This document shows, piece by piece, positions 19,731 to 32,257 of a stretch of 64,000 bases of DNA (the first letter of the stretch is position 1; the number at the start of each line of letters is the position of its first letter). The stretch is from an archaeon (GTDB taxonomy: Archaea > Nanobdellota > Nanobdellia > Pacearchaeales > GW2011-AR1), in the NCBI GenBank assembly GCA_018657525.1, contig JABHWZ010000004.1, forward strand, positions 114,382 to 178,381. Reading direction: 5' to 3'. The notes under the pieces were generated by a model that was not told the DNA's origin, made no database searches, and worked only from the letters and a program-made list of their open reading frames with translations. The translations under genes were made by a program, and so were the position numbers.

Positions 19731-20240
19731 ATGGCAGAAAAAGATATACTATTTTCAAGTAAACTAAAACACAAGGGTATTTTCAATTTTGCAGCTTTCT
19801 ACAAATTTTGCTATGACTGGCTTGAAGCAGAAACAGGTTTACTTTTACAAGAATCAAAATACGCTGAAAAACTATCCGGCGACATGAAGGAGATTGACAT
19901 TGAATGGAACGGATTCACTAAATTAACAGATTATTTCAGATTTGACATGAAAGTAACTTTCAAGATTCTTGCAATGAAACAAGTTGAAATTGTCCAGGAC
20001 GGGAAAAAAATCAAGACAAATGAAGGCCAGGTTGAAATGGGAGTCAAAGGAATTTTAACAAGAGATTGGCAAGGAGCTTATGAAAAAAGTGCATTCCAAA
20101 AAACATTAAGAACAATATACGACAAATGGCTTATCCCTTCTAGAATCGACCAATTCGAAGGCAAAGTAATTGGAGATTCAGACGAATTCTTAGGACAAGC
20201 CAAAGCATGGTTATCTCTTGAAGGAAAAGAACGACATTAA
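19731..20240 (+). CDS. Hypothetical protein
   Basis: 169-aa ORF with GGAGAGG SD. Confidence 0.75.
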   Translation: MAEKDILFSSKLKHKGIFNFAAFYKFCYDWLEAETGLLLQESKYAEKLSGDMKEIDIEWNGFTKLTDYFRFDMKVTFKILAMKQVEIVQDGKKIKTNEGQVEMGVKGILTRDWQGAYEKSAFQKTLRTIYDKWLIPSRIDQFEGKVIGDSDEFLGQAKAWLSLEGKERH

Positions 20241-20284
20241 TTCTTAACCGGCAAATTTAAATAAGCAATTTTTATAAATCAGGT

Positions 20285-20575
20285 ATGGATTTAAATACAT
20301 TAAGAACTGAAACATTAAAATTGATAGAAGAGTATAATCAGGATACAACTCATAGAAAAGTAGAACCAATTAATGGCTATGGGCAAGAAGACCCTCAAAT
20401 GATGATGTACTGGGCATTTTGGTCTGATGATATCCGCTCTGCACGAGGGGTTGGTTTTACATATATTAATAAAGAGTTAAAAGTTTTTTGTGGGAAAAAA
20501 GAAGTAATTGCTCTAGAAGATACTATTGATAATTTTAGAGAACAATTAAGAGCAATTCCAGCAAAAGCCCATTAA
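20285..20575 (+). CDS. Hypothetical protein
   Basis: ORF track. Confidence 0.55.
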   Translation: MDLNTLRTETLKLIEEYNQDTTHRKVEPINGYGQEDPQMMMYWAFWSDDIRSARGVGFTYINKELKVFCGKKEVIALEDTIDNFREQLRAIPAKAH

Positions 20576-20626
20576 TTCATCCCACACCATAGAAATCTTT
20601 AAATAGAAATTTAATAAGTATTTTAT

Positions 20627-22000
20627 ATGAAAAAATTAACACTTTCAATATTACTACTATTGCTTCTTCCCACAATCTTTGCAATCAATCTAGAAGTAAC
20701 ACAAAAAACCCCGAATCAAGTGATCATAGGAGGTTTAAATCAGCCAGCAATAGTAGAATTAGAAATCACCAACTTAGGATCAATAGACAATTTTGAAATC
20801 CTTAACTTATTTGGGTTCACATTAAATCCAACAGAAACAGGTTTCATAAAAAACAGCGAAACAAAAAAAATATATTTAGAAGTTTACCCGCGCTCAGATT
20901 TTTCAATAAAAGGATATTACACTTTATCTTATTTATTAAAATCAAAACAAACCTCAAAGTTACACAACCAAGAATTGACTCTAAAAATTGTAGATTTAGG
21001 AAACGCATTTGAAGTGGGAATTGAAGGATTTGACCTTGATGCAAACGAAATAGAAATTTATTTCAAAAATAAAGAAAATTTTAATTTTCAAGATTTATCT
21101 GTTAAATTTACTTCTAACTTTTTCAAATCTCAAGAAGAATTTGATTTAAATCCAAACGAAAAAAAAGTTTTTAATATTGAATTAGACAAAGATGACTTCA
21201 AAAGATTAAACGCTGGATTTTATACTTTAACTGCAGAAATTTCAGTAGAAAATCAAAAAGCAGAAGTTGAAGGAATTATTAATTTTAAACAGAATCCAGA
21301 TTTAAAAACACACGCAGAGAAATCTGGATTTTTCATCTATACTTCAAAAGTACAAAAAGAAAACACTGGAAATATAATAACAAAAACTCAAATAGAATTA
21401 AACAAAAATATTTTCTCACGATTATTCACCACCTTCAATGTTGAACCAGATTTAGTGAAAAGAAATGGAATAAAAATAAATTATACATGGGAAAAATCAG
21501 TAAAACCCGGAGAAACTTTTGAAGTGGTTGCCAAAACAAATTTTTTATTCCCGGTCATAATTATTTCATTAATCGTAATTTTAATTATTACTATTCAGCA
21601 TTATTTAAAATGCGACATAGTAATCAAAAAAAGAATTAATTTTGTCCATACGAAAAATAAACAATTCGCACTAAAAGTAAATATAATGGTTCGAGCTCAA
21701 AATTATGTGGAACAAGTTAATATTTTGGATAGACTCCCATTGATGGTAAAACTTTATTCAAAATTTGGCGGGCAAGAACCAACACGAGCCAACGAAGAAA
21801 AAAGAAGAATTGAATGGAACTTTGAGAAACTGGAAAAAGGAGAAGTGCGAACAATGTCTTATGTTATTTATTCAAAAGTCGGAGTGTTTGGAAAATTCGC
21901 CTTGCCAAAAACAACAGCAATTTATGAGAAAGAAGGCGAATTAAAAGAAACAGCGTCGAATCAAGTTTACTTTATGTCCGAGGAAGCTCGCGAGCAATAA
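20627..22000 (+). CDS. Membrane-anchored surface protein with Ig-like beta domains
   Basis: Signal peptide, beta-rich ectodomain, single TM near aa 305-325, cytoplasmic beta domain. Confidence 0.75.
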   Translation: MKKLTLSILLLLLLPTIFAINLEVTQKTPNQVIIGGLNQPAIVELEITNLGSIDNFEILNLFGFTLNPTETGFIKNSETKKIYLEVYPRSDFSIKGYYTLSYLLKSKQTSKLHNQELTLKIVDLGNAFEVGIEGFDLDANEIEIYFKNKENFNFQDLSVKFTSNFFKSQEEFDLNPNEKKVFNIELDKDDFKRLNAGFYTLTAEISVENQKAEVEGIINFKQNPDLKTHAEKSGFFIYTSKVQKENTGNIITKTQIELNKNIFSRLFTTFNVEPDLVKRNGIKINYTWEKSVKPGETFEVVAKTNFLFPVIIISLIVILIITIQHYLKCDIVIKKRINFVHTKNKQFALKVNIMVRAQNYVEQVNILDRLPLMVKLYSKFGGQEPTRANEEKRRIEWNFEKLEKGEVRTMSYVIYSKVGVFGKFALPKTTAIYEKEGELKETASNQVYFMSEEAREQ

Positions 22001-22095
22001 TTAGTGAGTAAAACGAACGTATGTAAGCCGAGCGAGGTTTCGAGTTGAGGCAAGAAAAGAAGCATAAAATAAAAGATAAACTTTATAAATCCTCT

Positions 22096-22482
22096 TTAAA
22101 ACATTTCACTATCTAAAAAATCAACCAAATCTTCTTTATGTTCAAATAAATTTCTAGGCAAACAGACACTTATTTTACAATTCCCTGGATAAGATTGATA
22201 ATCTACTTCACTTGCTGATTTACAATTACTTTCAGAAATATAATCCATTCGTAAATAAAATCCCGCTGGAAAAAGATACTCATCAGTAAACCCCGGATTA
22301 TGTAATTTATGAAAAAAGTCAGAATGACGAGAAATTTCAACACACCCTTTACGCATAAATCTTTCATAAGCCCTATTTCTAAACTCTTCCAAATTTTCAA
22401 AAGGCCAATTAACAACCGCCCGAAATCCATTCTCTACTTCATTAATTACCCACTCTTCTAAAATATCAACAGAGTCATTCAT
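22096..22482 (-). CDS. Hypothetical protein
   Basis: ORF track. Confidence 0.55.
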   Translation of the reverse strand: MNDSVDILEEWVINEVENGFRAVVNWPFENLEEFRNRAYERFMRKGCVEISRHSDFFHKLHNPGFTDEYLFPAGFYLRMDYISESNCKSASEVDYQSYPGNCKISVCLPRNLFEHKEDLVDFLDSEMF

Positions 22483-22546
22483 TTTATATCACTCATTATT
22501 AAAAAAGAACTTATGGATTTTTAAATTTTATTGTGATGATGAATTA

Positions 22547-23161
22547 TTAGAAAGTTTTCTGAGCAATCAAATTAGACATCTCATGAGTATGAAATCTTCC
22601 TTTGCCATGTTTTTCTTCCTTTGAATATTCTTTGTAAGAAATTATGTCCCAGACAGGATACATCCCAGATAACTCCCCATTAGAAAATTGATACTTATTC
22701 CTATTTTCTTTTCCTTTTCTAAAAACCCCAATAAAATTATATCCATTCTTTCTAGTTCTCTCCTGCATATTTTTTACTAATCTATAAACTTTTCTTTTTG
22801 TCAAAAAGTGTATTGAGAATAATGCACAAATTGCATCATAATCTTCAAGAATTTTATAAGTTTCTAAATCTCCAACAAAACTTTTGACTTTCAATTTAGC
22901 TTTTTTTGCATAAGCATCTAATTTAGCTATTCCAGTTTCTGCAATATCCATAGCTGTTACACGATGACCTTTGCTAGCTAGATAAAGTGCTACTCTCCCA
23001 GTTCCACACCCCAAATCCAAAACTTTTGAATTTCTTTTTAATAAAGCTTCAAATTCAATTAATCTTTTTCCAGGTTTTAAACCCCAATAAGCGCCCCTTG
23101 TTTTTGCATACTCTTTTTCAAAACGATACTTTCCCCCAATCTTATTTTTCAAAGAACCCAT
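22547..23161 (-). CDS. Class I SAM methyltransferase (TehB-like)
   Basis: VLDLGCGTGR, AMDI; GYN...Y.F..GEL...Y..W pattern. Confidence 0.85.
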   Translation of the reverse strand: MGSLKNKIGGKYRFEKEYAKTRGAYWGLKPGKRLIEFEALLKRNSKVLDLGCGTGRVALYLASKGHRVTAMDIAETGIAKLDAYAKKAKLKVKSFVGDLETYKILEDYDAICALFSIHFLTKRKVYRLVKNMQERTRKNGYNFIGVFRKGKENRNKYQFSNGELSGMYPVWDIISYKEYSKEEKHGKGRFHTHEMSNLIAQKTF

Positions 23162-23301
23162 ATTCTCTAAAATTAAACAGAATTTATAAACGTTTTCTTA
23201 ATCTCCTTCAACACCCACATTCCCCAAAATTTCTTTGATTCTTAAAAATAAAAAACATCAATAAATAATCACTTGATTATTTAATAAATAAAGAATAGAA
23301 T

Positions 23302-24102
23302 TTATTCTTCTCCAAACAATCCTTTAAAGAAATCTCCCACTGTCCTAAAGAAATCTCCAACAACTCCTGGACTTTCATGACCTTCTTCATAATTTGCATC
23401 CCCTGTTCCAGCATCATCACCAAATTCAGAACTTGCATCTGCACATTCAATGTCAACAATACAATCCCAACCTTGTCCAGATGGACCTTCTATTGGCCCT
23501 CCATAACAATGTTCACATTTATTAATACATTCATTTTCTTTTTCTGTTACCTGTTCATCATTTAAACATGGACCCTCATATAAATTAACACATTCTTCTG
23601 CACACTTTTTACATAGTGCACCTCCAGTCTCACCCTCCTTACTATTCCCACAAATCATTGAAGGATCTTCCACTGCAACACAATTAGAAATACAAATCTG
23701 CTCTGCATCCATCTCAGATTCATCAGGAGCATCTCCTTTCATATTACATTCATCCTCACATTTATCAATATTTAAATTTTGACAAACCATATCAAATTCT
23801 TCGCAGCCAACTTTAATACAATCTTGCATACATGATTCTCCTTCATCTGCAGGTTCAGGTGGACCAGAAACATCAACACCACATTGCGCCCCACATTCCA
23901 CAGATTTTGCTTCTCTGCATTCCATATCATTTGCATCGCATCCTTGAGTTGTACATTCTTCCATACAATTCATATCTGCAACACTAGGTCCCCCATAACC
24001 CTCGTCATTAGAAGAAGGTCCCCTTGCAACATTCCCAGTTAATTGAAAATAGGAAAATAAAGTTATAATAAATACAATAAAAATAATCAATTCTTTTTTC
24101 AT
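23302..24102 (-). CDS. Secreted or anchored cysteine-rich repeat protein
   Basis: N-terminal TM; repeated C-x3-C-x4-C-x6-C units; acidic. Confidence 0.75.
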   Translation of the reverse strand: MKKELIIFIVFIITLFSYFQLTGNVARGPSSNDEGYGGPSVADMNCMEECTTQGCDANDMECREAKSVECGAQCGVDVSGPPEPADEGESCMQDCIKVGCEEFDMVCQNLNIDKCEDECNMKGDAPDESEMDAEQICISNCVAVEDPSMICGNSKEGETGGALCKKCAEECVNLYEGPCLNDEQVTEKENECINKCEHCYGGPIEGPSGQGWDCIVDIECADASSEFGDDAGTGDANYEEGHESPGVVGDFFRTVGDFFKGLFGEE

Positions 24103-24168
24103 TAAACTACTAAAGAAAAAGGATTTATAAAATTATGGAATGCACCCGCACAAATATGACAGGGGGGT

Positions 24169-25068
24169 TTAAAAAATAATTTTTTCATCTCTTAGTAAAT
24201 CAAACAAAAATTTGATTAAAGGTCTTAAATTTCCATTGACCTGTGACTCTTCTAGCCCTTCATAATATCTGTACTTATTTTTGCTTGGAATGTTAATCAT
24301 TGGATATTTGTTTTTTCTTAATACAAAATTCATTAATAATCTTCCCACTCTTCCGTTCCCATCAACAAAAGGATGGATTGTTTCAAAAGCAGAATGAAAA
24401 TATGTCGCGAGTATTAAAGGGTGAAGCTTATTCTTGTTTTTCGTATACCAAGACAGTAAGTAGGACATTTCTTTGGCAACTTCTGTTGGCTTAGGAGGCA
24501 TCCACTCAGTCCCCCTAATGTATACTTGCAAAGTTCGATATTTTCCTATTTGATTTTCTAGCTCTTCTTTCAATGTTTCTTTTACAACTAATTTATGCAA
24601 ATTTAGAATCATTTTTTTGTTCAGGTCACCCTCACAATTTAATAAATAGTCAAAAGCCTTTTTGTGATTCATAATTTCATTTATTTCTCTTAATGATTTT
24701 CTCGGAGTTACTCTTTCAAATAATAATTGAGATGTTTCTTGCAGTGTTAATGTATTCCCTTCAATACTTGTAGAATCGTATGTAAAAAGGGAAACAAATG
24801 CCTCATAACGATTTTCCTCTGTAGCTTTTAATTGCTTAAGATAAATTTCTTTTATTTTTTTTAGTTCTGTTTCTTCACTTTTGGTAAGAAGAGTGGATAG
24901 TAAGGATAATTCTTTATCTGCATCTGCTTCTTTTTTAGATAACTTTCTTTTATCTAAATCTACGCCCAAATATATCCTTTTTTTATTTACATCCTTTCCT
25001 CTTCTAATTGACTTAACTCTGTAAAAGTATTTTCTTCCACCTTTTTCTTTTATTTCAGTATAAACCAT
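24169..25068 (-). CDS. Fic family protein
   Basis: HPFVDGNGRVGR; STSIEGNT inhibitory-type motif; basic N-terminal domain. Confidence 0.93.
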   Translation of the reverse strand: MVYTEIKEKGGRKYFYRVKSIRRGKDVNKKRIYLGVDLDKRKLSKKEADADKELSLLSTLLTKSEETELKKIKEIYLKQLKATEENRYEAFVSLFTYDSTSIEGNTLTLQETSQLLFERVTPRKSLREINEIMNHKKAFDYLLNCEGDLNKKMILNLHKLVVKETLKEELENQIGKYRTLQVYIRGTEWMPPKPTEVAKEMSYLLSWYTKNKNKLHPLILATYFHSAFETIHPFVDGNGRVGRLLMNFVLRKNKYPMINIPSKNKYRYYEGLEESQVNGNLRPLIKFLFDLLRDEKIIF

Positions 25069-25076
25069 AATAATTT

Positions 25077-25118
25077 TACGTCTACACCATTTAAATAGTT
25101 TTCTACGCAGTGGACGTA
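25077..25118. promoter_or_regulatory. Inverted repeat flanking the Fic TATA box (putative operator)
   Basis: TACGTCTAC...GTGGACGTA around ATTTAAAT. Confidence 0.45.
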
Positions 25119-25158
25119 CTGATTATAAGGTTACTCTGGAGGTCTATCTTATCATTAA

Positions 25159-25210
25159 TAAAAAAATCCCTCACCAAAATTTTGCAATTGGTTTAATTTT
25201 TAGGGATTTG
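25159..25210. repeat. Degenerate tRNA-Tyr 3'-end-derived boundary repeat C
   Basis: TAAAAAAATCCCTCACCAAAATTTTGCAATTGGTTTAATTTTTAGGGATTTG resembles 25663-25713. Confidence 0.7.
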
Positions 25211-25247
25211 AGGAAATCTTTATAAATAATAAACTCCTATATTTAAA

Positions 25248-25607
25248 ATGAAAAAGATAACTTATATAATTAATTGGGCATTATTTTTTATAATCTATAT
25301 TATTTCATATATATTATTTATTAGTAGCGAAGATACTGAATTTGTAGTACATTTTTTCATAATATTAATTTTCGCATTATATTCAATTCTCTTTTTATAT
25401 TCAAGACATAAAGCCCCTAATTCATTTCCCAAAAAAATTGTAGTTCTAAATTGGATTGTATCCTTAATATTAATTTATTGTACTGAATTAACTCTTTCCG
25501 ATCCATGGGGAGCTTTAATATGGTATTTCTCAATCTTTCCACTGGGGATAGTAATAATTATCACATATGTTCTGTTAATCACATTAAAGGAAGAAATAAT
25601 CACTTGA
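25248..25607 (+). CDS. Four-TM membrane protein
   Basis: Hydrophobic ORF with its own TTTATAAA box. Confidence 0.65.
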   Translation: MKKITYIINWALFFIIYIISYILFISSEDTEFVVHFFIILIFALYSILFLYSRHKAPNSFPKKIVVLNWIVSLILIYCTELTLSDPWGALIWYFSIFPLGIVIIITYVLLITLKEEIIT

Positions 25608-25629
25608 TTTTTTAATTTCCAAAACTCTT

Positions 25630-25687
25630 TTTTATCGATGACAAATATTAAAACAGCGTCGATAAAAAAAATCCCCACCAAGATTCG
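25630..25687. repeat. Boundary repeat B (hairpin plus tRNA-Tyr 3'-end copy)
   Basis: 25630-25681 is 51/52 identical to 26553-26604; CCCCACCAAGATTCG (25673-25687) equals tRNA-Tyr 26778-26792. Confidence 0.85.
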
Positions 25688-25696
25688 CCAATTGGT

Positions 25697-26329
25697 TTAT
25701 TTTTTAGGGGTTTGATTGATAATATCCACACCGAGATGACTGGGAGAGTTAGATAATTTACAATCTTCAAAATCTGATTTTTTTAATTTTAAATATTTAT
25801 TTACAGATTTTATCAATTCGTTGGAACGAGAAAAATTAGAATTTCTAACCCTATCAAAATAAGTATATAAAATAACTTGAATTCCCCTTTTTCTTAATCT
25901 TTGAATTACCGGGACAAAATCTGAATCAGAAGCGATTAAAATAACTTGTTTTATTTTAGGAAATTCTATGGGAATCTCAATTAAATCCATTGTTAATAAA
26001 GTATCTACTCCTTTTTGTTTGTAGATATATTTCCCATTATTTTTAACTCTTTGACATCTCCCCTCTCTAATTGTCACACAATCATTACGCCCCAATTTAG
26101 AAGTAAAGGAATCATAATCTTCTTTTCTCTTTTTTTGGCTTGGATTAGGATTTGTACTTTGGTAAGGAGGAGCATTATAAAAAAATAAATGATAAAAAAT
26201 CGAACCAAATTTACCACAAAGATCTTTAGAGAATTTTAGAAGATCATATTTAAAATAATGGCCGTCCCCTAGTTCACGACTAACTTTGGATAAAAATCCT
26301 GCATCAACCATAACTAATACTTTTTCCAT
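25697..26329 (-). CDS. NYN (LabA/DUF88, PIN-fold) ribonuclease
   Basis: VDAGF, QKGVDTLLTMD, LIASDSDFVP, G..V, SNELI acidic active-site pattern. Confidence 0.9.
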   Translation of the reverse strand: MEKVLVMVDAGFLSKVSRELGDGHYFKYDLLKFSKDLCGKFGSIFYHLFFYNAPPYQSTNPNPSQKKRKEDYDSFTSKLGRNDCVTIREGRCQRVKNNGKYIYKQKGVDTLLTMDLIEIPIEFPKIKQVILIASDSDFVPVIQRLRKRGIQVILYTYFDRVRNSNFSRSNELIKSVNKYLKLKKSDFEDCKLSNSPSHLGVDIINQTPKK

Positions 26330-26364
26330 TAAGGAGACTAAGAAATTCTATTTTATAAATCTTA

Positions 26365-26412
26365 ATAAAAAAATAAATCATCCATTGACCCGGAGATCAA
26401 TGGGGAGCATGT
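26365..26412 (-). ncRNA. Candidate ~45-nt hairpin RNA upstream of the NYN gene
   Basis: Own ATTTAAAAA box (26435-26443), hairpin CCATTGA-N8-TCAATGG (26382-26403), T-run; the NYN gene has a separate TATA at 26351-26360. Ends estimated. Confidence 0.5.
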
Positions 26413-26552
26413 TAATATAATCATGATTTAATGATTTTTAAATGTTACTAAATACCACATAGAGATGGCTAGGAGAGTTGAAATTCACTTTATTTTCTTC
26501 CTAACCAAGCAACCATAAATCCAATAATCATTATAACAACATTACTTTTTGA

Positions 26553-26604
26553 TTTTATCGACGACAAATATTAAAACAGCGTCGATAAAAAAAATCCCCA
26601 CCAA
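26553..26604. repeat. Boundary repeat A
   Basis: TTTTATCGACG...CGTCGATAAAA inverted repeat followed by ATCCCCACCAA. Confidence 0.85.
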
Positions 26605-26774
26605 TGCTCCTAACCCTGATTTTAAATTTTAAAGTTTACCTTCGGGAGTTTATTAAAATCAAAGTTACTCGTCAAACACAGGATAAAATCAAAGATTTTG
26701 AAAGTTTTCTGTACTTAACCGAGTTAGAACTTTGAAAAGAAAAAAGTGGTTCCAAAAAAGGAACCACTTAACTA

Positions 26775-26928
26775 TCCCCCCACCAAGATTCGAACTTGGG
26801 ATCTTCCGGGTGCTGCACTAATGCAGTCCATAGGAACTGACTTCTCAGGCTTCATTTAATTTCGATGAATCTAATCGAATATCCACCCTATTCTACAGCC
26901 AGACGCTCTACCGCTGAGCTATGGAGGG
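26775..26928 (-). tRNA. tRNA-Tyr(GTA) with an 82-nt intron at 37/38 (26811-26892)
   Basis: C1:G72 acceptor CCCTCCA/TGGGGGG; TCTGG-CTGTAG|intron|C-CCGGA; BHB central helix CTGT/GCAG with 3-nt bulges. Confidence 0.92.
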
Positions 26929-27064
26929 ATTTAAACTTCCCCAACCTAACTTAATAGATTGAGTGTTATCCTATAACATAAAAACAGATAAGAATTAACA
27001 TATCTGTACCTATGTTAAAATATTGTAGATTTTGATATTTATAAAGATTGTTGTTAATCCCCAA

Positions 27065-27154
27065 CCGCCCACGACCCTAGTCAAGCATCCTAAGGCGATG
27101 TCGTGTTTGTTTGCTTTATTGTAATTGGTGGCTTTTGTTTTTAAGTCTTGTCGA
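27065..27154. repeat. 90-bp direct repeat, copy 1
   Basis: 86/90 identical to 29842-29931. Confidence 0.9.
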
Positions 27155-27234
27155 GATTGAGTGGGGGGATTAGTTAAATAATCAAGTGATTGTTTATTCA
27201 AAGGATTTTTAAAGTTAAATTTGTTGATCAGAGT

Positions 27235-27738
27235 ATGAAAGAAGGTTTTGATTCAACTGCTTTTAATGAGCAGGCTATAACTCCAAAAAAATCTAAAATT
27301 TGGGTTTGGGTTTTCATGTTTGGAGTAGTTTTAGCGATATTAATCATTGGAGGTTATTTTGTTTATTTTAATTCTCCTGGGGAGCCCCAACTAGTAAAAA
27401 TTAATTCATTAGAGATAGTTAATGTCTATAGAAATTGTGAAAAAAATGGAGCTGATTATAAAGATACTACGCTTCAAACTACAATTGATGTTGAAATTAC
27501 AAAAAATGAAAAATATTCAGAAAAAATCCTTGCTAGGGATTGCGTTTTAAAACTTGATTCTAATAACGTTGAAAGTTTTTCCTTAGTTGTACTTCCAGTC
27601 CCGAATCCTTATATTGAGGGAATCCAGGATTCTGGTTTACACAGGGTAACTGGAGCAGAATTAATTGGAGATAAATCAGGAGAATTAACTTTTTGTTGTC
27701 AAGAAAAATGTGACACTGCATTTGTTAATGCTTGTTAA
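27235..27738 (+). CDS. Single-TM membrane-anchored protein with Cys-containing ectodomain
   Basis: ATG 27235 lies about 21 nt below TTTTTAAAG; one TM helix. Confidence 0.7.
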   Translation: MKEGFDSTAFNEQAITPKKSKIWVWVFMFGVVLAILIIGGYFVYFNSPGEPQLVKINSLEIVNVYRNCEKNGADYKDTTLQTTIDVEITKNEKYSEKILARDCVLKLDSNNVESFSLVVLPVPNPYIEGIQDSGLHRVTGAELIGDKSGELTFCCQEKCDTAFVNAC

Positions 27739-27748
27739 ATAATATACA

Positions 27749-29443
27749 ATGATATTTAATTCAAATAAGAAGAAAATAATATTAATGTTTTTACTCGGGA
27801 TATTAATCTATACAAATATTATCTCTGCTCAATTAGCAGATTTTGATGGAGTTACGGAAGTTCAAAAAGTTACTTCTTCTCATCCCGACTATGAAGCTAT
27901 TTCTCAACAGTATGCTTTAGAGGCTTACCAAGCTTATGAGATAACATATAGGATTAGAAGGGGTTGGAATTTCTTACCCTTTTCATTACTTGATGGAAGA
28001 GATTCCGTAACTGGAAAAGCTTCTTGTTGGAAACAAAATGATCAGAGCGGAGATTTTGGAGCAACGGTGTTAGAATATATTTATCTCTATGAACCCAACG
28101 CTTCAATACTTCCAAACAATAAATTGGGTTATTATGTAGGTGGATATGTAGAAGAATGGAAAGAGGAACCTCTAAAGAGTTATCAAAAAGATTTAAGAGG
28201 AATACCTGAGCCAAATTCAAAGATGACTTTACCTATTAATTGGGTTTATTCTCCAATAGACTGCGAATTTAAATTTTATACTGGGTGGCTAGACGAAGTT
28301 AATTACGAGGAGACTAGCAATTTTATAAAAGAAGGAAACTTAAATTTAACTCTCGAAAAAGGTTGGCAAGTTATTTTGCAATTATTTCCGGGGTTTTCTT
28401 GGAATGAAATAAAAGGAGATTGTATTATAGAAGAGATTAATTTTTGGCAACCAGATGTTCAAGTATATTCTCTTCTTCCTGAAGATTCGGCAACATTTAC
28501 AAGTTCTTTTTTAGATCGTGTTGTGGGCATTGAAGATTATTTTAAACCAATTATGATGAAAATTAAAGACTCTTGTACGTTGGGAAAAACAATTAACTAT
28601 TCCTGCGAAAAAGTTATAGATAATGGAGATTCTTCACAAAAAATAGATTTACTATATATACCCGATGCATATAATAATTTATCTTTATGGGCAGAAGATG
28701 TTGATAGTATTAATGAAGAATTTTTTTCAATTGAACCTATGAAATCAAATAAAAATAAATTTAATGTTTGGAGGGTAGATCTGCTTGGCGATAACCTGGA
28801 GAGGGATTTTGAAATTGGGGGATTTTCCTATAGATCTCAAGCTAAGATTAAAGAAATCCAGAGAAATTGTGTGGAATTAAATGAAGATTTTGATATTTCT
28901 TTAGTTGTTGATTCTGGAACGGTTAATCTTGGATCTGAGGGGGGGAGAACAATTTATTCTTCAAGAACAAGATTGATCGACGGAGAAGAATTGATTGCTT
29001 GGAGAACTTTAGTTCATGAATTTGGCCATTTTATAGCAAATTTAGGAGATGAATATGAAAATTCTATAAGCGTTAGGGATTTCTCTGATAGACCAAATAT
29101 TGATAAAGAAGGATGTCCAAAATGGTGTTCTGGTGAATTAAATACTAATGCTTCTTGTTATAATGACTATATTTCCTTTAAAACTTGTTTATATAACGTT
29201 ACTGATAATTTAACATCACAATATAAGGGTGAATGTAATTATCATTATTCATTACCTCTTTGCAATTTGGGAGTTGGTTGTAGAGATGAAACAGGTTGTT
29301 ATTGGAATGCTAAAAGTATAATCTCTTTTAGATCAACTAAGAAGAGTTTTATGAGTAATCCGGACATGGTTACAGAGTTTAATAGTATAAGCCAGGAGGC
29401 CATATTAGAAAAATTAAATCTCTTGGATAATCAAAATGAATAA
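27749..29443 (+). CDS. Secreted zinc metallopeptidase, M64-like
   Basis: Signal peptide; KIDLLYIPDAY, HEFGHFIANLGDEY, PNID, SFM Met-turn; LEKGW-type surface repeats. Confidence 0.8.
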   Translation: MIFNSNKKKIILMFLLGILIYTNIISAQLADFDGVTEVQKVTSSHPDYEAISQQYALEAYQAYEITYRIRRGWNFLPFSLLDGRDSVTGKASCWKQNDQSGDFGATVLEYIYLYEPNASILPNNKLGYYVGGYVEEWKEEPLKSYQKDLRGIPEPNSKMTLPINWVYSPIDCEFKFYTGWLDEVNYEETSNFIKEGNLNLTLEKGWQVILQLFPGFSWNEIKGDCIIEEINFWQPDVQVYSLLPEDSATFTSSFLDRVVGIEDYFKPIMMKIKDSCTLGKTINYSCEKVIDNGDSSQKIDLLYIPDAYNNLSLWAEDVDSINEEFFSIEPMKSNKNKFNVWRVDLLGDNLERDFEIGGFSYRSQAKIKEIQRNCVELNEDFDISLVVDSGTVNLGSEGGRTIYSSRTRLIDGEELIAWRTLVHEFGHFIANLGDEYENSISVRDFSDRPNIDKEGCPKWCSGELNTNASCYNDYISFKTCLYNVTDNLTSQYKGECNYHYSLPLCNLGVGCRDETGCYWNAKSIISFRSTKKSFMSNPDMVTEFNSISQEAILEKLNLLDNQNE

Positions 29444-29588
29444 TAAAAAAGGAATGGGCAGATGGATTTGGGTTATTATAGCTTTAATTTTTATAACTGG
29501 TATTGGAATTTATTTTTGGTTAACTGGCCATCCTCCTGTGCAAGAAATAGAGAATTCTATATCTACTCCTCCCTTGTTACCTTCCTAA
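29436..29588 (+). CDS. 50-aa membrane peptide with a class III-like N-terminus
   Basis: Hand translation MNNKKGMGRWIWVIIALIFITGIGIYFWLTG...PPLLPS; overlaps the peptidase stop. Confidence 0.55.
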   Translation: MNNKKGMGRWIWVIIALIFITGIGIYFWLTGHPPVQEIENSISTPPLLPS

Positions 29589-29841
29589 AAAATAAGTCGA
29601 TTGTTTAATTTTGAAAATACCTATGTAAAAACACCCAATTTCCGAAGGGTAGATTGTCTCACGGGGCAGAGTTTAATATTTATTACTTTAATATTTATTT
29701 CTTTGTTTTTGAATTTGGTTTTTTATCCTTTATTAAATAGAAAATCTAACCCCAGTTTTGTCCAGTCAAATGATTTGAAATTTTTTGTTCATGAGTAAAT
29801 GGTTTAGGATAGCTTCGATAAACACCTTAGAGATGTTCCCT

Positions 29842-29931
29842 CCGCCCACGACCCTAGTCGAGCATCCTAAGGTGATGTCGTGTTTGTTTGCTTTATGTTA
29901 ATTGGTGGCTTTTGTTTTTAAGTCTTGTCGA
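29842..29931. repeat. 90-bp direct repeat, copy 2
   Basis: See 27065-27154. Confidence 0.9.
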
Positions 29932-29965
29932 CTACGGGAGGGTGACGGAGAAAAATAAGATGCAT

Positions 29966-30487
29966 TTATTCTTCCAGTATATTTTCTATTAATGTTAAAA
30001 ATTCCTTAGCCCTTTCTAAGGAAGTTTGAGCCTTCGATTTTTTAATATTTTCAGTAGTCTCATATTGAAATGTAGATCTTTTAACTTTTTCAAAACCATA
30101 TTTTGTCAAATAATTATCACTAACAGATAAAGCTTCATCTTTTCCTATCTCATAAGCTTTCAAAAGATGATTTTTTATTTTATGTCTTCCTTGCACTATT
30201 AATGCTTCGTTTATTACTTGATGTACAATTTCGTGTCTCGTTTTATATCCTAACTTGTATAAATATGCGCAAGCAATATAAAACATAGAATAATAACTGC
30301 TTACAACTACCCATAACGAAGAAGAAACATTTTTGAATAATAGGTTAGCTACACTCAAACTTTCTCTTGCATTTTTCAAATAAGTTTCATAAATCAGGGG
30401 ATTTTGCTTATCTACATTTATTATCTTCCCATCTTTTAAATAATTTTTGAAATTATCTTCCGCTTGTTTTATTCTTTTTTCATCCAT
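29966..30487 (-). CDS. HEPN-domain protein (UPF0332-like), partner of the MNT
   Basis: SYYSMFY, H, RSTFQY (R-x4-Y). Confidence 0.8.
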   Translation of the reverse strand: MDEKRIKQAEDNFKNYLKDGKIINVDKQNPLIYETYLKNARESLSVANLLFKNVSSSLWVVVSSYYSMFYIACAYLYKLGYKTRHEIVHQVINEALIVQGRHKIKNHLLKAYEIGKDEALSVSDNYLTKYGFEKVKRSTFQYETTENIKKSKAQTSLERAKEFLTLIENILEE

Positions 30488-31065
30488 TCTGAAATTAAAT
30501 TATAGTAATTCTCTTTCCCATAAAGTATAATATTGTTTTTAATTATTTCGTTACCAAGATTATTTCCTTTCTTTTCTATCATTGAGGTGAATTCTTTTGA
30601 GGTGAATTCTTGTATTTCTAAGTTCAAAGATAATAGGCTCAATTTCTCATTTAATATTTCGGATTTGGATTTATTATCTAAAATTATACAGATATCAATG
30701 TCTGAATTCTTTGTGTTGGTTTTCTTGATGTATGAACCAAATGCCAATACAGTTAGAAATGGGTAGCTTAATTCTTTGATATATTTTCTTATAACTTTTA
30801 AATTTAAATTTTTCGAAAAAAATTCTTCAGTTCTTTTCTCTTCTATCGAAAGAGTTTCTATATTGTTATTTTGATTAAATTCGATAAGATAGGAGTTTCC
30901 CTGCTTGCTTTTTAAATATGTTTTAGGATTTATTTTAGAGAGTGCTTGAGAAGTGTTTTTATAATCTGTTTTTAATTTTTTAGAAATCTCCATTATAGAG
31001 TGGGGGGATTCTTTGTTTTCAATTAAAAATTTCAATATTTTTTCTTTTAGGGTGTATTTTACCAT
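30469..31065 (-). CDS. HTH plus minimal nucleotidyltransferase (MNT antitoxin-like)
   Basis: N-terminal HTH; AFGSY...SDIDIC; overlaps the HEPN gene. Confidence 0.85.
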   Translation of the reverse strand: MVKYTLKEKILKFLIENKESPHSIMEISKKLKTDYKNTSQALSKINPKTYLKSKQGNSYLIEFNQNNNIETLSIEEKRTEEFFSKNLNLKVIRKYIKELSYPFLTVLAFGSYIKKTNTKNSDIDICIILDNKSKSEILNEKLSLLSLNLEIQEFTSKEFTSMIEKKGNNLGNEIIKNNIILYGKENYYNLISEWMKKE

Positions 31066-31077
31066 AGTGTTATGGTA
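31060..31077. promoter_or_regulatory. Palindrome over the MNT start codon (putative autorepression operator)
   Basis: TACCATA-GTGT-TATGGTA. Confidence 0.5.
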
Positions 31078-31277
31078 TGCAATACCTTATTTAAATCTTG
31101 TGTTTGTATGGATCTCTCTTCATGTTCTAAAGAGCAAACATTATTTATTAACACCGAGGTTTTACATGGGTAACTTATGGGTGCCTTGCAGGTGTCGTTT
31201 AGAAGTCGGAGTGTTTTTCTTCTTCTCAGAAGCCCATCAAATATGCGTTGAATGGGTTACGCCCCCACCGCGCTTCT

Positions 31278-31577
31278 TTAATCTTTAAATATTTCCACAA
31301 CAACCTCAGGATTTTTTTCATTTCCAAATTTAACTTGATATTTTGTTTTGTTCTTTCTATAATGTTCAAAAGATATCCATCCCATAGGTTTATCTTGCCC
31401 TCTAAGAACAGGGATGTGGTCTTTAGAAGGAGCTGCAAATATTCCTTCGCCTTTTAGACTAACAATCATAGATTCAAATCCTGGAGGTTCTCCATCAATC
31501 TCTTTTCTATCAATCTTTTTTTTTCCATCATAAATATCCCAGTGACTGTTTTCTCTATCTTTTTTTATAGTATGCAT
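31278..31577 (-). CDS. Hypothetical protein
   Basis: ORF track. Confidence 0.5.
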   Translation of the reverse strand: MHTIKKDRENSHWDIYDGKKKIDRKEIDGEPPGFESMIVSLKGEGIFAAPSKDHIPVLRGQDKPMGWISFEHYRKNKTKYQVKFGNEKNPEVVVEIFKD

Positions 31578-31740
31578 TCCAGAACCAATAGTCCCTGAAG
31601 GGATTTGAGGGACATTCTTCCACCATGTATCATTACTATTAGTATGTCTAATTTGTTTATAAGGGATATCATCAATGATAATATTAATTTTTCCTGTTTT
31701 TTGCCCATTTCTCTCTGTCCACCTGATGATCTTCCCATAA

Positions 31741-31941
31741 CTATTTTACCCAAATACTTTGAATCAAAAGCTTCGCACCATAAAAAAAAGTAAATATTAC
31801 TGCAATAACTAATCCAAACCACATTACGTCAGGAGTAATAAAACCAAGATATTTTTGATCTACAATTTGCTTAGTAAGATTAGTAAAAATTAATGCAAAG
31901 CCAATCAAAGTAAGTCCATCAATAAAATCTTTTCTATTCAT
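31741..31941 (-). CDS. Small two-TM protein
   Basis: Hydrophobic ORF. Confidence 0.55.
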   Translation of the reverse strand: MNRKDFIDGLTLIGFALIFTNLTKQIVDQKYLGFITPDVMWFGLVIAVIFTFFYGAKLLIQSIWVK

Positions 31942-31975
31942 AATCTCCCTAAGATTCTTTTGCTTAAATACATTT

Positions 31976-32257
31976 CTATTCCAAAAGAGACTTCCAAGAG
32001 TCTTTATTTGGAGATTTTAACATAAATCCCAAATAGATTAAACCAAAACCCCCCAAAGCAAAAAGAAAAAAACCAAACTGACTAAGCGCTGAAAGGGTAT
32101 GATTAACAAAATCAAGACGAAAAGGAACTGATTCTAAATCTTCAAAAGTCATCTTAATAAACAAAAAAATCTTTTCTACAAATCTAGTCAAAAAAACAGC
32201 CCCCATAATGATTAATACTTCTCCTAAAAGTTTATCTGATTGATCTTCTTTACTCAT
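31976..32257 (-). CDS. Small two-TM protein
   Basis: Hydrophobic ORF. Confidence 0.55.
   Translation of the reverse strand: MSKEDQSDKLLGEVLIIMGAVFLTRFVEKIFLFIKMTFEDLESVPFRLDFVNHTLSALSQFGFFLFALGGFGLIYLGFMLKSPNKDSWKSLLE

Follow-up and report, generated by a model that had tools for sequence, protein, structure and literature searches.

Can a nuclease of the PIN-like superfamily be held in check by an RNA encoded next to it? The question is raised by a locus in a 64,000-nucleotide (nt) stretch of DNA from an archaeon of the order Pacearchaeales (the window, whose numbering is used throughout), where the gene of a NYN / LabA-like nuclease of 210 amino acids (aa) (Pfam PF01936; minus strand, 26329-25697) is directly preceded by a predicted gene for a small hairpin RNA. 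The host genome, 828 kb in 14 contigs and 84% complete, is small and AT-rich; the host appears to be a DPANN archaeon of the Pacearchaeota type, and the closest protein relatives of the NYN protein are named Candidatus Pacearchaeota, Nanoarchaeota or 'archaeon'. A previous reading made from the letters alone (the sequence-only reading) had proposed that the two genes make up a type III-like toxin-antitoxin system, or an RNA-regulated nuclease, that moves as one module. Following the hairpin through metagenomes and related genomes, we found that it is a new covarying RNA element, lacking from Rfam 15, and that it is tightly linked to one branch of NYN genes. A type III-like pair of nuclease and RNA is the best reading of the locus, and we hold it with somewhat less than even confidence.

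A predicted small RNA gene upstream of the NYN gene

On the minus strand, the first TATA-like box, ATTTAAAAA (26443-26435; the 8-mer at 26442-26435), is the candidate promoter of the small RNA. Archaeal promoter spacing puts the transcription start at about the first A of a downstream AAC, and because the box stands 21 nt upstream of it, we place the start of the RNA at 26413; the transcription start, the termination and the tRNA anticodon given below were all read from the sequence. The predicted RNA is ~45-47 nt long (26413-26367, minus strand) and would consist of a 10-nt single-stranded 5' tail, a 9-bp stem with a 4-nt loop (26403-26395 paired with 26390-26382, one of the pairs being G-U), an AUGAUU 3' flank and a U-run. 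An ATG lies within the hairpin stretch at 26410-26408. The hairpin has a folding energy of -13.6 kcal/mol (z -2.54) and ranks 4th in stability among 74 upstream regions of the window. It is followed by the T-run TTTATTTTTTT at 26377-26367 and by a second TATA, ATTTATAAAA, at 26360-26351, which stands 21-22 nt before the NYN ATG and would yield a leaderless NYN mRNA.

Both TATA boxes, the T-run and the NYN ATG are thus present on the minus strand where the sequence-only reading had put them, and so is its hairpin, the stem of which turned out to be 9 bp long instead of 7 bp. The discrete RNA unit that it had described upstream of NYN, with its own promoter and a T-run after it, is likewise recognisable, and in the window's clade the NYN gene also has a promoter of its own and a predicted leaderless start.

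Scanning positions 20000-32000 against Rfam 15 (cmscan, E<=1) returned nothing at 26367-26413; the same scan gave only a tRNA, described below, and a sub-threshold L20_leader over the tRNA terminator. With a covariance model of the element, R1 (51 positions, 10 pairs), which served for the genome searches, one strong match was found in the whole 828-kb genome, namely this locus (62.7 bits, E 1.8e-10; E 1.1e-9 in the genome-wide search), and the next match has E 0.89.

The protein matches the Pfam NYN family over residues 96-181 (40.8 bits, E 4e-10; cut-off 24.2), and a NYN model of PADLOC matches it weakly (E 1.8e-6). It has 844 homologs at E<=1e-3, annotated with PF01936 and under names like 'LabA/DUF88'; of the 120 listed, the majority have lengths of ~187-197 aa. 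An alignment of 32 sequences showed a conserved MEK start and invariant Asp residues at 9, 73, 109, 135 and 137, suggesting that these Asp residues are catalytic. When an AlphaFold2 (AF2) model of the protein (predicted local distance difference test [pLDDT] 84, predicted template modelling score [pTM] 0.82; residues 195-210 below 50) was searched with Foldseek, the LabA-like structure 2qip came first (E 1.9e-9), followed at ranks 2-3 by the NYN domains of MARF1 (5yaa and 6fdl). The identity of the window protein to the solved structures is 14-19%, and a sequence profile searched against the PDB found no solved relative. The native end of the protein lies at ~25753 (CKL); most homologs stop within a residue or two of CKL, and the window protein has 17 extra C-terminal residues, a tail that is read from the flanking DNA and its repeat.

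Conservation and covariation of the hairpin

A scan of metagenomes gave 491 NYN relatives, and the best 80 were kept for the analysis of the upstream regions, in which the hairpin was called by a sequence pattern together with pairing, six pairs being required. The entire element (TATA, 21 nt, AACAUG..UCC, stem, AUGAUU, T-run) stands upstream of NYN in 78 of these best 80 loci, and because so many passed, the selection bias from the six-pair requirement should be small. It is shared by the window and 7 genome loci; a related hairpin was found in 9/9 of the first homolog loci having upstream sequence. The two loci that missed it, L049 and L050, are mutually identical; a hairpin of another sort, with a U-run and a second TATA, occupies the same position in them. 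Tandem RNA genes, each with its own TATA, were found at L056 and L067.

When the 77 distinct sequences were folded together by RNAalifold, the same 10-pair helix appeared as the one drawn by hand. Across these sequences 97.9% of the cells are paired, as compared with 20-47% in slid controls, and double compensatory changes are seen at 7 of the 10 stem pairs (91 cells). None of 500 shuffles matched the paired fraction, the number of double-change cells or the covariation score, and one of the 500 reached 7 pairs. Pair 14-34 is AU in 39 sequences and GC in 38, pair 13-35 is CG in 59 and UA in 18, and there is no broken cell in either. Thus the hairpin which the sequence-only reading would have expected before homologous NYN genes is indeed there, and it covaries.

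Two U-G wobbles are conserved in 60/77 and 75/77 sequences, and the changes in the stem go via wobble intermediates. Since such wobbles are mismatches on the other strand and in a DNA palindrome, the RNA should lie on the NYN-sense strand; the alternative that the hairpin is a DNA palindrome or operator was ruled out by these wobbles and by the changes passing through wobble pairs. L036, which belongs to the close group of the window, has a compensatory C-G to U-A change, suggesting that the pairing is still under selection in the window's clade. The single-stranded flanks, 5' AACAU(G/A) and UCC and 3' AUGAUU, are even more conserved than the stem, and loop length among homologous copies is 4, 6 or 7 nt. 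Inspecting the alignment by eye for consensus patterns, we saw no covariation between the 5' tail and the 3' flank and no match to a K-turn or a C/D box. Mimicry of the 16S rRNA 3' end by the hairpin was also considered and dropped, as the shared letters fall in the covarying stem.

The geometry of the promoter was examined in 78 distinct copies. A TATA-like 8-mer stands exactly 21 nt upstream of AAC in 68 of them by a strict pattern, and most of the others have near variants. Within 22 nt downstream comes a T-run, of 4 or more in 69/78 copies and of 5 or more in 53/78. The same copies were sorted by simple motif patterns according to how NYN would be expressed. A Shine-Dalgarno (SD) sequence alone was seen in 41/78; a second TATA ~21 nt before the NYN ATG, without SD, in 11/78 (the window, L034, L035, L036, L005 and others); both signals in 4/78; and neither in 9/78. 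In a further 9/78 the frame is open through the hairpin and no start codon intervenes before the NYN core, and the NYN start was not located in 4/78. The hairpin would therefore be a unit separate from the NYN mRNA in the window's clade and the 5' end of the NYN mRNA in most relatives.

Linkage of the RNA to NYN across genomes

Searching 61 relatives with R1 gave 17 hits in 12 genomes. Eleven of these lie directly 5' of a NYN ortholog (one such NYN is broken by stop codons) and one lies at a contig end; the other five precede a truncated NYN remnant, a second, different hairpin with a NYN paralog, a 54-aa open reading frame (ORF) with a ParE-family gene, an unknown 311-aa ORF, and nothing recognisable. 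A second search, over 151 genomes of the order, gave 62 hits in 42 genomes, with 1-4 per genome and a patchy distribution within genera. This search added 25 new loci, its remaining hits having come without loci, and in 22/25 NYN is directly 3' of the RNA. The three exceptions have, respectively, a histidine phosphatase gene, a LOG/SLOG gene and an unknown 152-aa ORF downstream. Taken together, 33 of the 42 examined hits (17 from the first search and 25 from the second) have a NYN ortholog directly downstream, 8 are without an intact ortholog and 1 is not judgeable. A NYN ortholog without any hairpin was not seen among the loci examined.

More distant NYN genes (25-31% identical) have an element of their own, composed of a TATA, ~21 nt, a CUCC/UCCCC tail, a different stem and a U-run. 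Inspection of upstream regions by eye found such an element in 8 of 9 distant homologs, including the host genome's paralog outside the window, so that paralogs carry clade-specific versions of the hairpin.

Several loci show further arrangements. A second hairpin type, with a CCCCGG..CCGGG stem, tandem G-A mismatches and its own TATA, stands before distant NYN genes at L016-L019, L130, L150 and L060, and at L130, L150 and L060 it is placed in tandem after the first type. The host genome's NYN paralog (L004:1395-1441, outside the window) has yet another hairpin. At L129 (1076-1503, minus strand) the same promoter and hairpin lie directly before the 54-aa ORF and the ParE-family toxin gene, so that the RNA module is also able to precede a toxin-antitoxin pair of another kind.

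There is no conserved protein ORF inside the bracket formed by the flanking repeats. When all ORFs of 60 aa or more from 88 loci were clustered, only hsdM, hsdS and an antisense frame in NYN (14 loci) recurred, which agrees with the earlier observation that no protein antitoxin lies within the bracket and extends it to the lack of a conserved protein partner in the 88 loci. Because the pairing of RNA and NYN recurs with compensating changes in many related genomes, the RNA is probably a dedicated partner of NYN, perhaps an inhibitor. We found no report joining a NYN domain with a type III toxin-antitoxin system in the open-access literature, and nothing on an RNA-NYN pairing in the open-access literature on NYN together with DPANN, anti-phage defense or structured RNA, or on COG1432 together with toxin.

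Cassette boundaries and flanking repeats

At the DNA level, the window is homologous to other loci from 26441-26452, shortly upstream of the first TATA, to 25753-25755, at the last native codons; the flanks are otherwise unrelated between loci. The shared block is thus flush on both sides with a 25-bp direct repeat, the two copies of which (26455-26479 upstream and 25726-25750 downstream, minus strand) are identical at 21 of 25 positions, the downstream copy being translated within the NYN tail. A flank match of this quality occurred in 0/300 shuffles and in 2/300 equally spaced genomic control pairs; the two copies share no 9-nt exact seed, and the automated repeat scan overlooked them. Because the shared block ends before the stop codon, homologs differ in the length of the tail after CKL (0 to 18 residues) and the window ORF enters the repeat. 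The repeat and the ORF running through it were as the sequence-only reading had described, and its proposal of joint movement gained from homology that ends flush with the repeat, from the unrelated contexts and from repeats flanking other loci as well. RNA and NYN together probably form a mobile two-gene cassette of ~700 bp (about 26454-25751).

The other loci were surveyed with 58 distinct loci having both flanks and 58 mismatched control pairs. Flanking direct repeats matching at 19/20 or 20/20 positions were found in 7/58 loci, and a 17/20 match in one more, with the best control at 16/20. When extended, these repeats are 20-57 nt long, 88-100% identical and locus-specific (L044, L087, L066, L098, L108, L052 and L057). 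Some of them, as judged by eye, take in the first codons of the downstream gene, and their variable length is unlike the usual transposase footprint.

The window has two nested repeat pairs, the inner one of 25 nt (84%) and an outer one of 52 nt (98%), which the automated scan did detect and the sequence-only reading had left unmentioned; such nesting would fit two successive moves. The upstream copy of the outer repeat (26553-26604, minus strand) is identical at 51/52 positions to 25681-25630; its start resembles a tRNA 3' end and is followed by T8 and a 7-bp inverted repeat. The downstream copy is held by an 86-nt element (25630-25715, minus strand), which also contains, at 25687-25673, 15 nt identical to the 3' end of the tRNA gene described next, and a third, partial copy of this element lies at 25211-25158. 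A nearby intron-containing tRNA gene (26775-26928, minus strand; Rfam 49.4 bits, E 2.7e-8) has an 85-nt insertion in the anticodon loop; its anticodon, read by eye, is GUA (Tyr), and the gene was missed by ARAGORN. In each of the three places (25630-25715, 26553-26604 and 25158-25211) a look-alike of the tRNA 3' end is followed by T7-8. These copies look like remnants of repeated integrations beside a tRNA gene, with no integrase nearby.

When the ORFs of 90 aa or longer at 8-43 kb of the window were searched with Pfam, none matched an integrase or transposase, and no recombinase is common to the loci. A search of viral contigs gave 55 pattern matches and no relative by tblastn. We also looked for a decayed second NYN cassette at 25100-25700, where a 14-nt stretch (25500-25513) echoes the 5' half of the hairpin; a six-frame hmmsearch with filters off had a best E of 0.37, and the candidate was rejected.

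Genomic context

In 10 loci (8 distinct), no more than 15 nt separate the end of NYN from the start of an hsdM gene; hsdS is upstream in 7 loci, and six of the 10 hsdM loci also have the upstream hsdS. The module is thus seen inside type I restriction-modification (R-M) operons at L041, L042, L045, L060, L063, L065, L069, L078, L109 and L111; at L041 the NYN stop and the hsdM start overlap as ATGA.

Downstream of NYN in the window are a small membrane ORF and a Fic-domain gene (24169-25068, minus strand), which matches the SoFic and PDC-S04 candidate defence models with E about 1e-36 to 1e-41 and whose start is ~90 nt downstream of the third tRNA-end look-alike. Positions 23302-24102 (minus strand) hold the gene of a secreted-looking protein of 266 aa, very rich in Cys, Glu and Asp and without a Pfam match. 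Further upstream of the cassette, a HEPN + nucleotidyltransferase (HEPN/MNT-type) pair occupies 29966-31062 (minus strand).

A proposed type III-like pair and its rivals

One possible interpretation of these observations is as follows. The strong first TATA promoter would start an RNA of ~45 nt at ~26413, carrying the conserved 5' tail, a hairpin of 9-10 bp with two G-U wobbles and AUGAUU, and the U-run would halt most transcripts. The NYN mRNA would be leaderless from the second promoter in the window and its nearest relatives, and elsewhere it would mostly arise by read-through of the U-run to the SD sequence, so that under either layout the RNA would be in excess over the nuclease. The RNA would bind its cognate NYN and hold the nuclease inactive, and NYN may excise the RNA from the leader. 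If the supply of RNA were lost, by a virus-induced shut-off or by loss of the cassette, the freed nuclease would cleave RNA and arrest the cell, and the outcome would be a type III-like toxin-antitoxin or abortive-infection module. We favour this type III-like reading because the RNA has been retained where it does not serve as a leader (the 11/78 copies with a second TATA and without SD), is duplicated with its own promoters, survives without the nuclease, the reverse not being seen, and is accessory among defence genes.

Several points weigh against it. The RNA is a single hairpin and not a repeat array, and the protein has a PIN-like fold, whereas classical type III systems have tandem repeats and the ToxN fold. 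LabA-like NYN proteins have no known function, and none is known as a toxin in the accessible text of the 2017 classification of PIN-like proteins (PMC5499597). The SD-type copies (41/78) have the hairpin as the 5' leader of the NYN mRNA, and in the 9/78 copies with no start codon between hairpin and NYN core, as in these, a cis-acting leader fits at least equally. Furthermore, 6 of the 42 examined RNA hits stand before unrelated genes or nothing, the genes being a ParE-type pair (L129), His_Phos_1 (L153), LOG/SLOG (L155) and two unknowns (L117 and L150), and because the RNA heads such genes, promoter and hairpin may be a portable expression module that is not specific to NYN. The asymmetry between RNA without NYN and NYN without RNA is also partly trivial, since every gene needs a promoter. 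The type III-like claim of the sequence-only reading therefore stood as regards the RNA unit, its covarying hairpin, the lack of a protein partner and the joint movement, and was weakened by the frequent leader layout, the single hairpin and the hits before other genes or nothing.

The strongest rival, which fits the majority SD layout and which we regard as possible if somewhat unlikely, is an autoregulatory 5' leader, in which NYN would be a housekeeping or stress RNase rather than a toxin and would bind or cut its own leader, or promote the stop at the U-run, thereby limiting its own synthesis. In most loci the hairpin comes first among the structures of the NYN transcript, counting the SD-only copies and those lacking an intervening start codon; the U-run of at least 4 could serve as an attenuator; paralogs, too, carry hairpins of their own in this position, in some cases no more than 15-20 nt from the start; and the conserved single-stranded flanks suggest recognition by a protein. 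A leader of this kind is, however, difficult to reconcile with a hairpin that persists, and has undergone a compensatory change, in the clade where a TATA of its own would give NYN a leaderless start, with tandem RNA genes under separate promoters at some loci, and with an RNA that persists without NYN. Patchy multi-copy cassettes and placement in type I R-M operons are also unlike a housekeeping RNase.

The RNA might instead be a portable promoter and leader with no tie to NYN, whose hairpin would stabilise or insulate the transcript (against 5' exonucleases, or as a terminator-insulator) and would travel with any gene. The occurrence of the same RNA before the ParE/RelE-type pair at L129 and the genes at L153, L155, L117 and L150 is what such an element would produce, as is the strictly conserved promoter geometry. 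But a stabiliser needs structure only, and yet the flanks and two wobbles are nearly invariant here; NYN is directly downstream in 33/42 hits, R1 has a single strong match in the 828-kb genome, hairpins so stable are uncommon upstream of genes in the window, and different NYN clades retain different hairpins. Altogether this explanation appears quite improbable to us.

A function in mobility is more speculative, and we give it very little chance. The module would then be a selfish element in which the nuclease, the hairpin (as RNA or single-stranded DNA) or both serve its own insertion, which would explain the duplications: the locus-specific repeats of 20-57 nt around the module in 7 other loci (at least 19/20, against 16/20 for the best control) and the nested pairs in the window. 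The right end of the module at the last sense codons, with tail and stop codon supplied by the target, and the lack of a recombinase among the loci and in the ORFs searched by Pfam, are also in line with it. However, PIN/NYN proteins are not known to serve as transposases or homing enzymes, although no search aimed at such a role was made. The repeats vary in length and 50/58 loci are without any, unlike transposase footprints, and the strict promoter spacing and sense-strand wobbles point to an RNA made by the cell. Finally, a leaderless micro-peptide of 10 codons (ATG at 26410 to TGA at 26380), suggested by an ATG 3 nt after the predicted start, by the window frame ending at the TGA of the conserved GGATGA and by gene callers that extended some NYN through the hairpin (P0052, P0062), is largely excluded, as loops of 4, 6 or 7 nt shift the frame, the ATG is ATA in 18/78 copies and the changes are compensatory for pairing but non-synonymous for the peptide.

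The type III-like reading can also be taken further, to a first PIN/NYN-based system of this type: a new class of archaeal selfish defence cassette, widespread in DPANN and equipped with clade-cognate hairpins, which would insert as a promoter-carrying unit between genes (e.g., in type I R-M operons) and leave long target duplications, with the RNA or the nuclease perhaps joining in the insertion. We consider this larger picture unlikely as it stands.

Comparison with known systems

The locus resembles ToxIN, AbiQ, CptIN and TenpIN in the order of promoter, small RNA, terminator-like signal and endonuclease gene, in the absence of a protein antitoxin and in being an accessory, defence-linked locus. 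The arrangement expected of a type III system, a small RNA gene and a terminator-like signal directly before the nuclease, is found here at the sequence level. The accessible text of one account describes the antitoxins of the ToxIN kind as tandem repeats cleaved by the toxin into single units, and attributes the ToxN fold to the toxins (PMC12737573). The present locus, in an archaeon, pairs a single hairpin (two in tandem at 2 loci) with a NYN/PIN-like protein, and has neither a tandem-repeat array nor a ToxN/HEPN fold.

The closest functional analogue of the proposed pair would be AbiF with its upstream non-coding RNA (ncRNA). In the AbiF report, as far as its accessible text goes, a single structured ncRNA just upstream neutralises the toxin in cis and in trans, and systems of this type are without repeat arrays (10.1101/2025.04.15.648962); the ncRNA (AbiFr; RCd22 in C. 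difficile) is described as neutralising the nuclease by direct binding (10.1101/2025.04.15.648962; PMC12737573). AbiF differs in being a HEPN RNase of bacteria and phages with a larger RNA of two motifs, and we found no sequence or fold relation to NYN or to the hairpin.

Modules of the VapBC kind share with the cassette a PIN-like nuclease and a small, mobile, multi-copy form, and are common in archaea; but VapC is held by the VapB protein encoded upstream, whereas no conserved ORF accompanies NYN here. The anticodon nuclease PrrC is a latent RNase whose gene lies between type I R-M genes and which is held by R-M proteins. NYN likewise lies between hsdS and hsdM in several loci, but it has another fold and its candidate inhibitor is an RNA. 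The RNase genes rnc and rne, which are chromosomal housekeeping genes, have a stem-loop at the 5' end of their own mRNA. A stem-loop in its own 5' untranslated region is what NYN has in the SD-type loci, and not in those with a second TATA and no SD, including the window; a further difference is that the hairpin here is also a separate transcription unit and also occurs without the nuclease.

By its Pfam match above the cut-off, its best structural matches and its conserved acidic residues, the protein belongs with the LabA-like NYN proteins (COG1432, 2qip, MARF1). The accessible text of the 2017 classification account treats NYN as a separate branch of the PIN-like superfamily, lists the NYN.COG1432 group as of unknown function and mentions no RNA partner for LabA-like NYN (PMC5499597).

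Significance

As the same account has it in its accessible text, LabA-like NYN proteins number thousands of members and have no known biochemical role in prokaryotes (PMC5499597). A covarying, dedicated RNA partner would be the first concrete handle on the role of one NYN branch, and the motif itself is a new RNA family that is easily modelled. The clean boundaries of the cassette and the duplications flanking it point to a way of inserting genes that has yet to be explained. Should the RNA indeed inhibit the nuclease, the principle of an RNA antitoxin would hold for the PIN-like superfamily and for DPANN archaea as well, the defence and addiction systems of which are poorly known.

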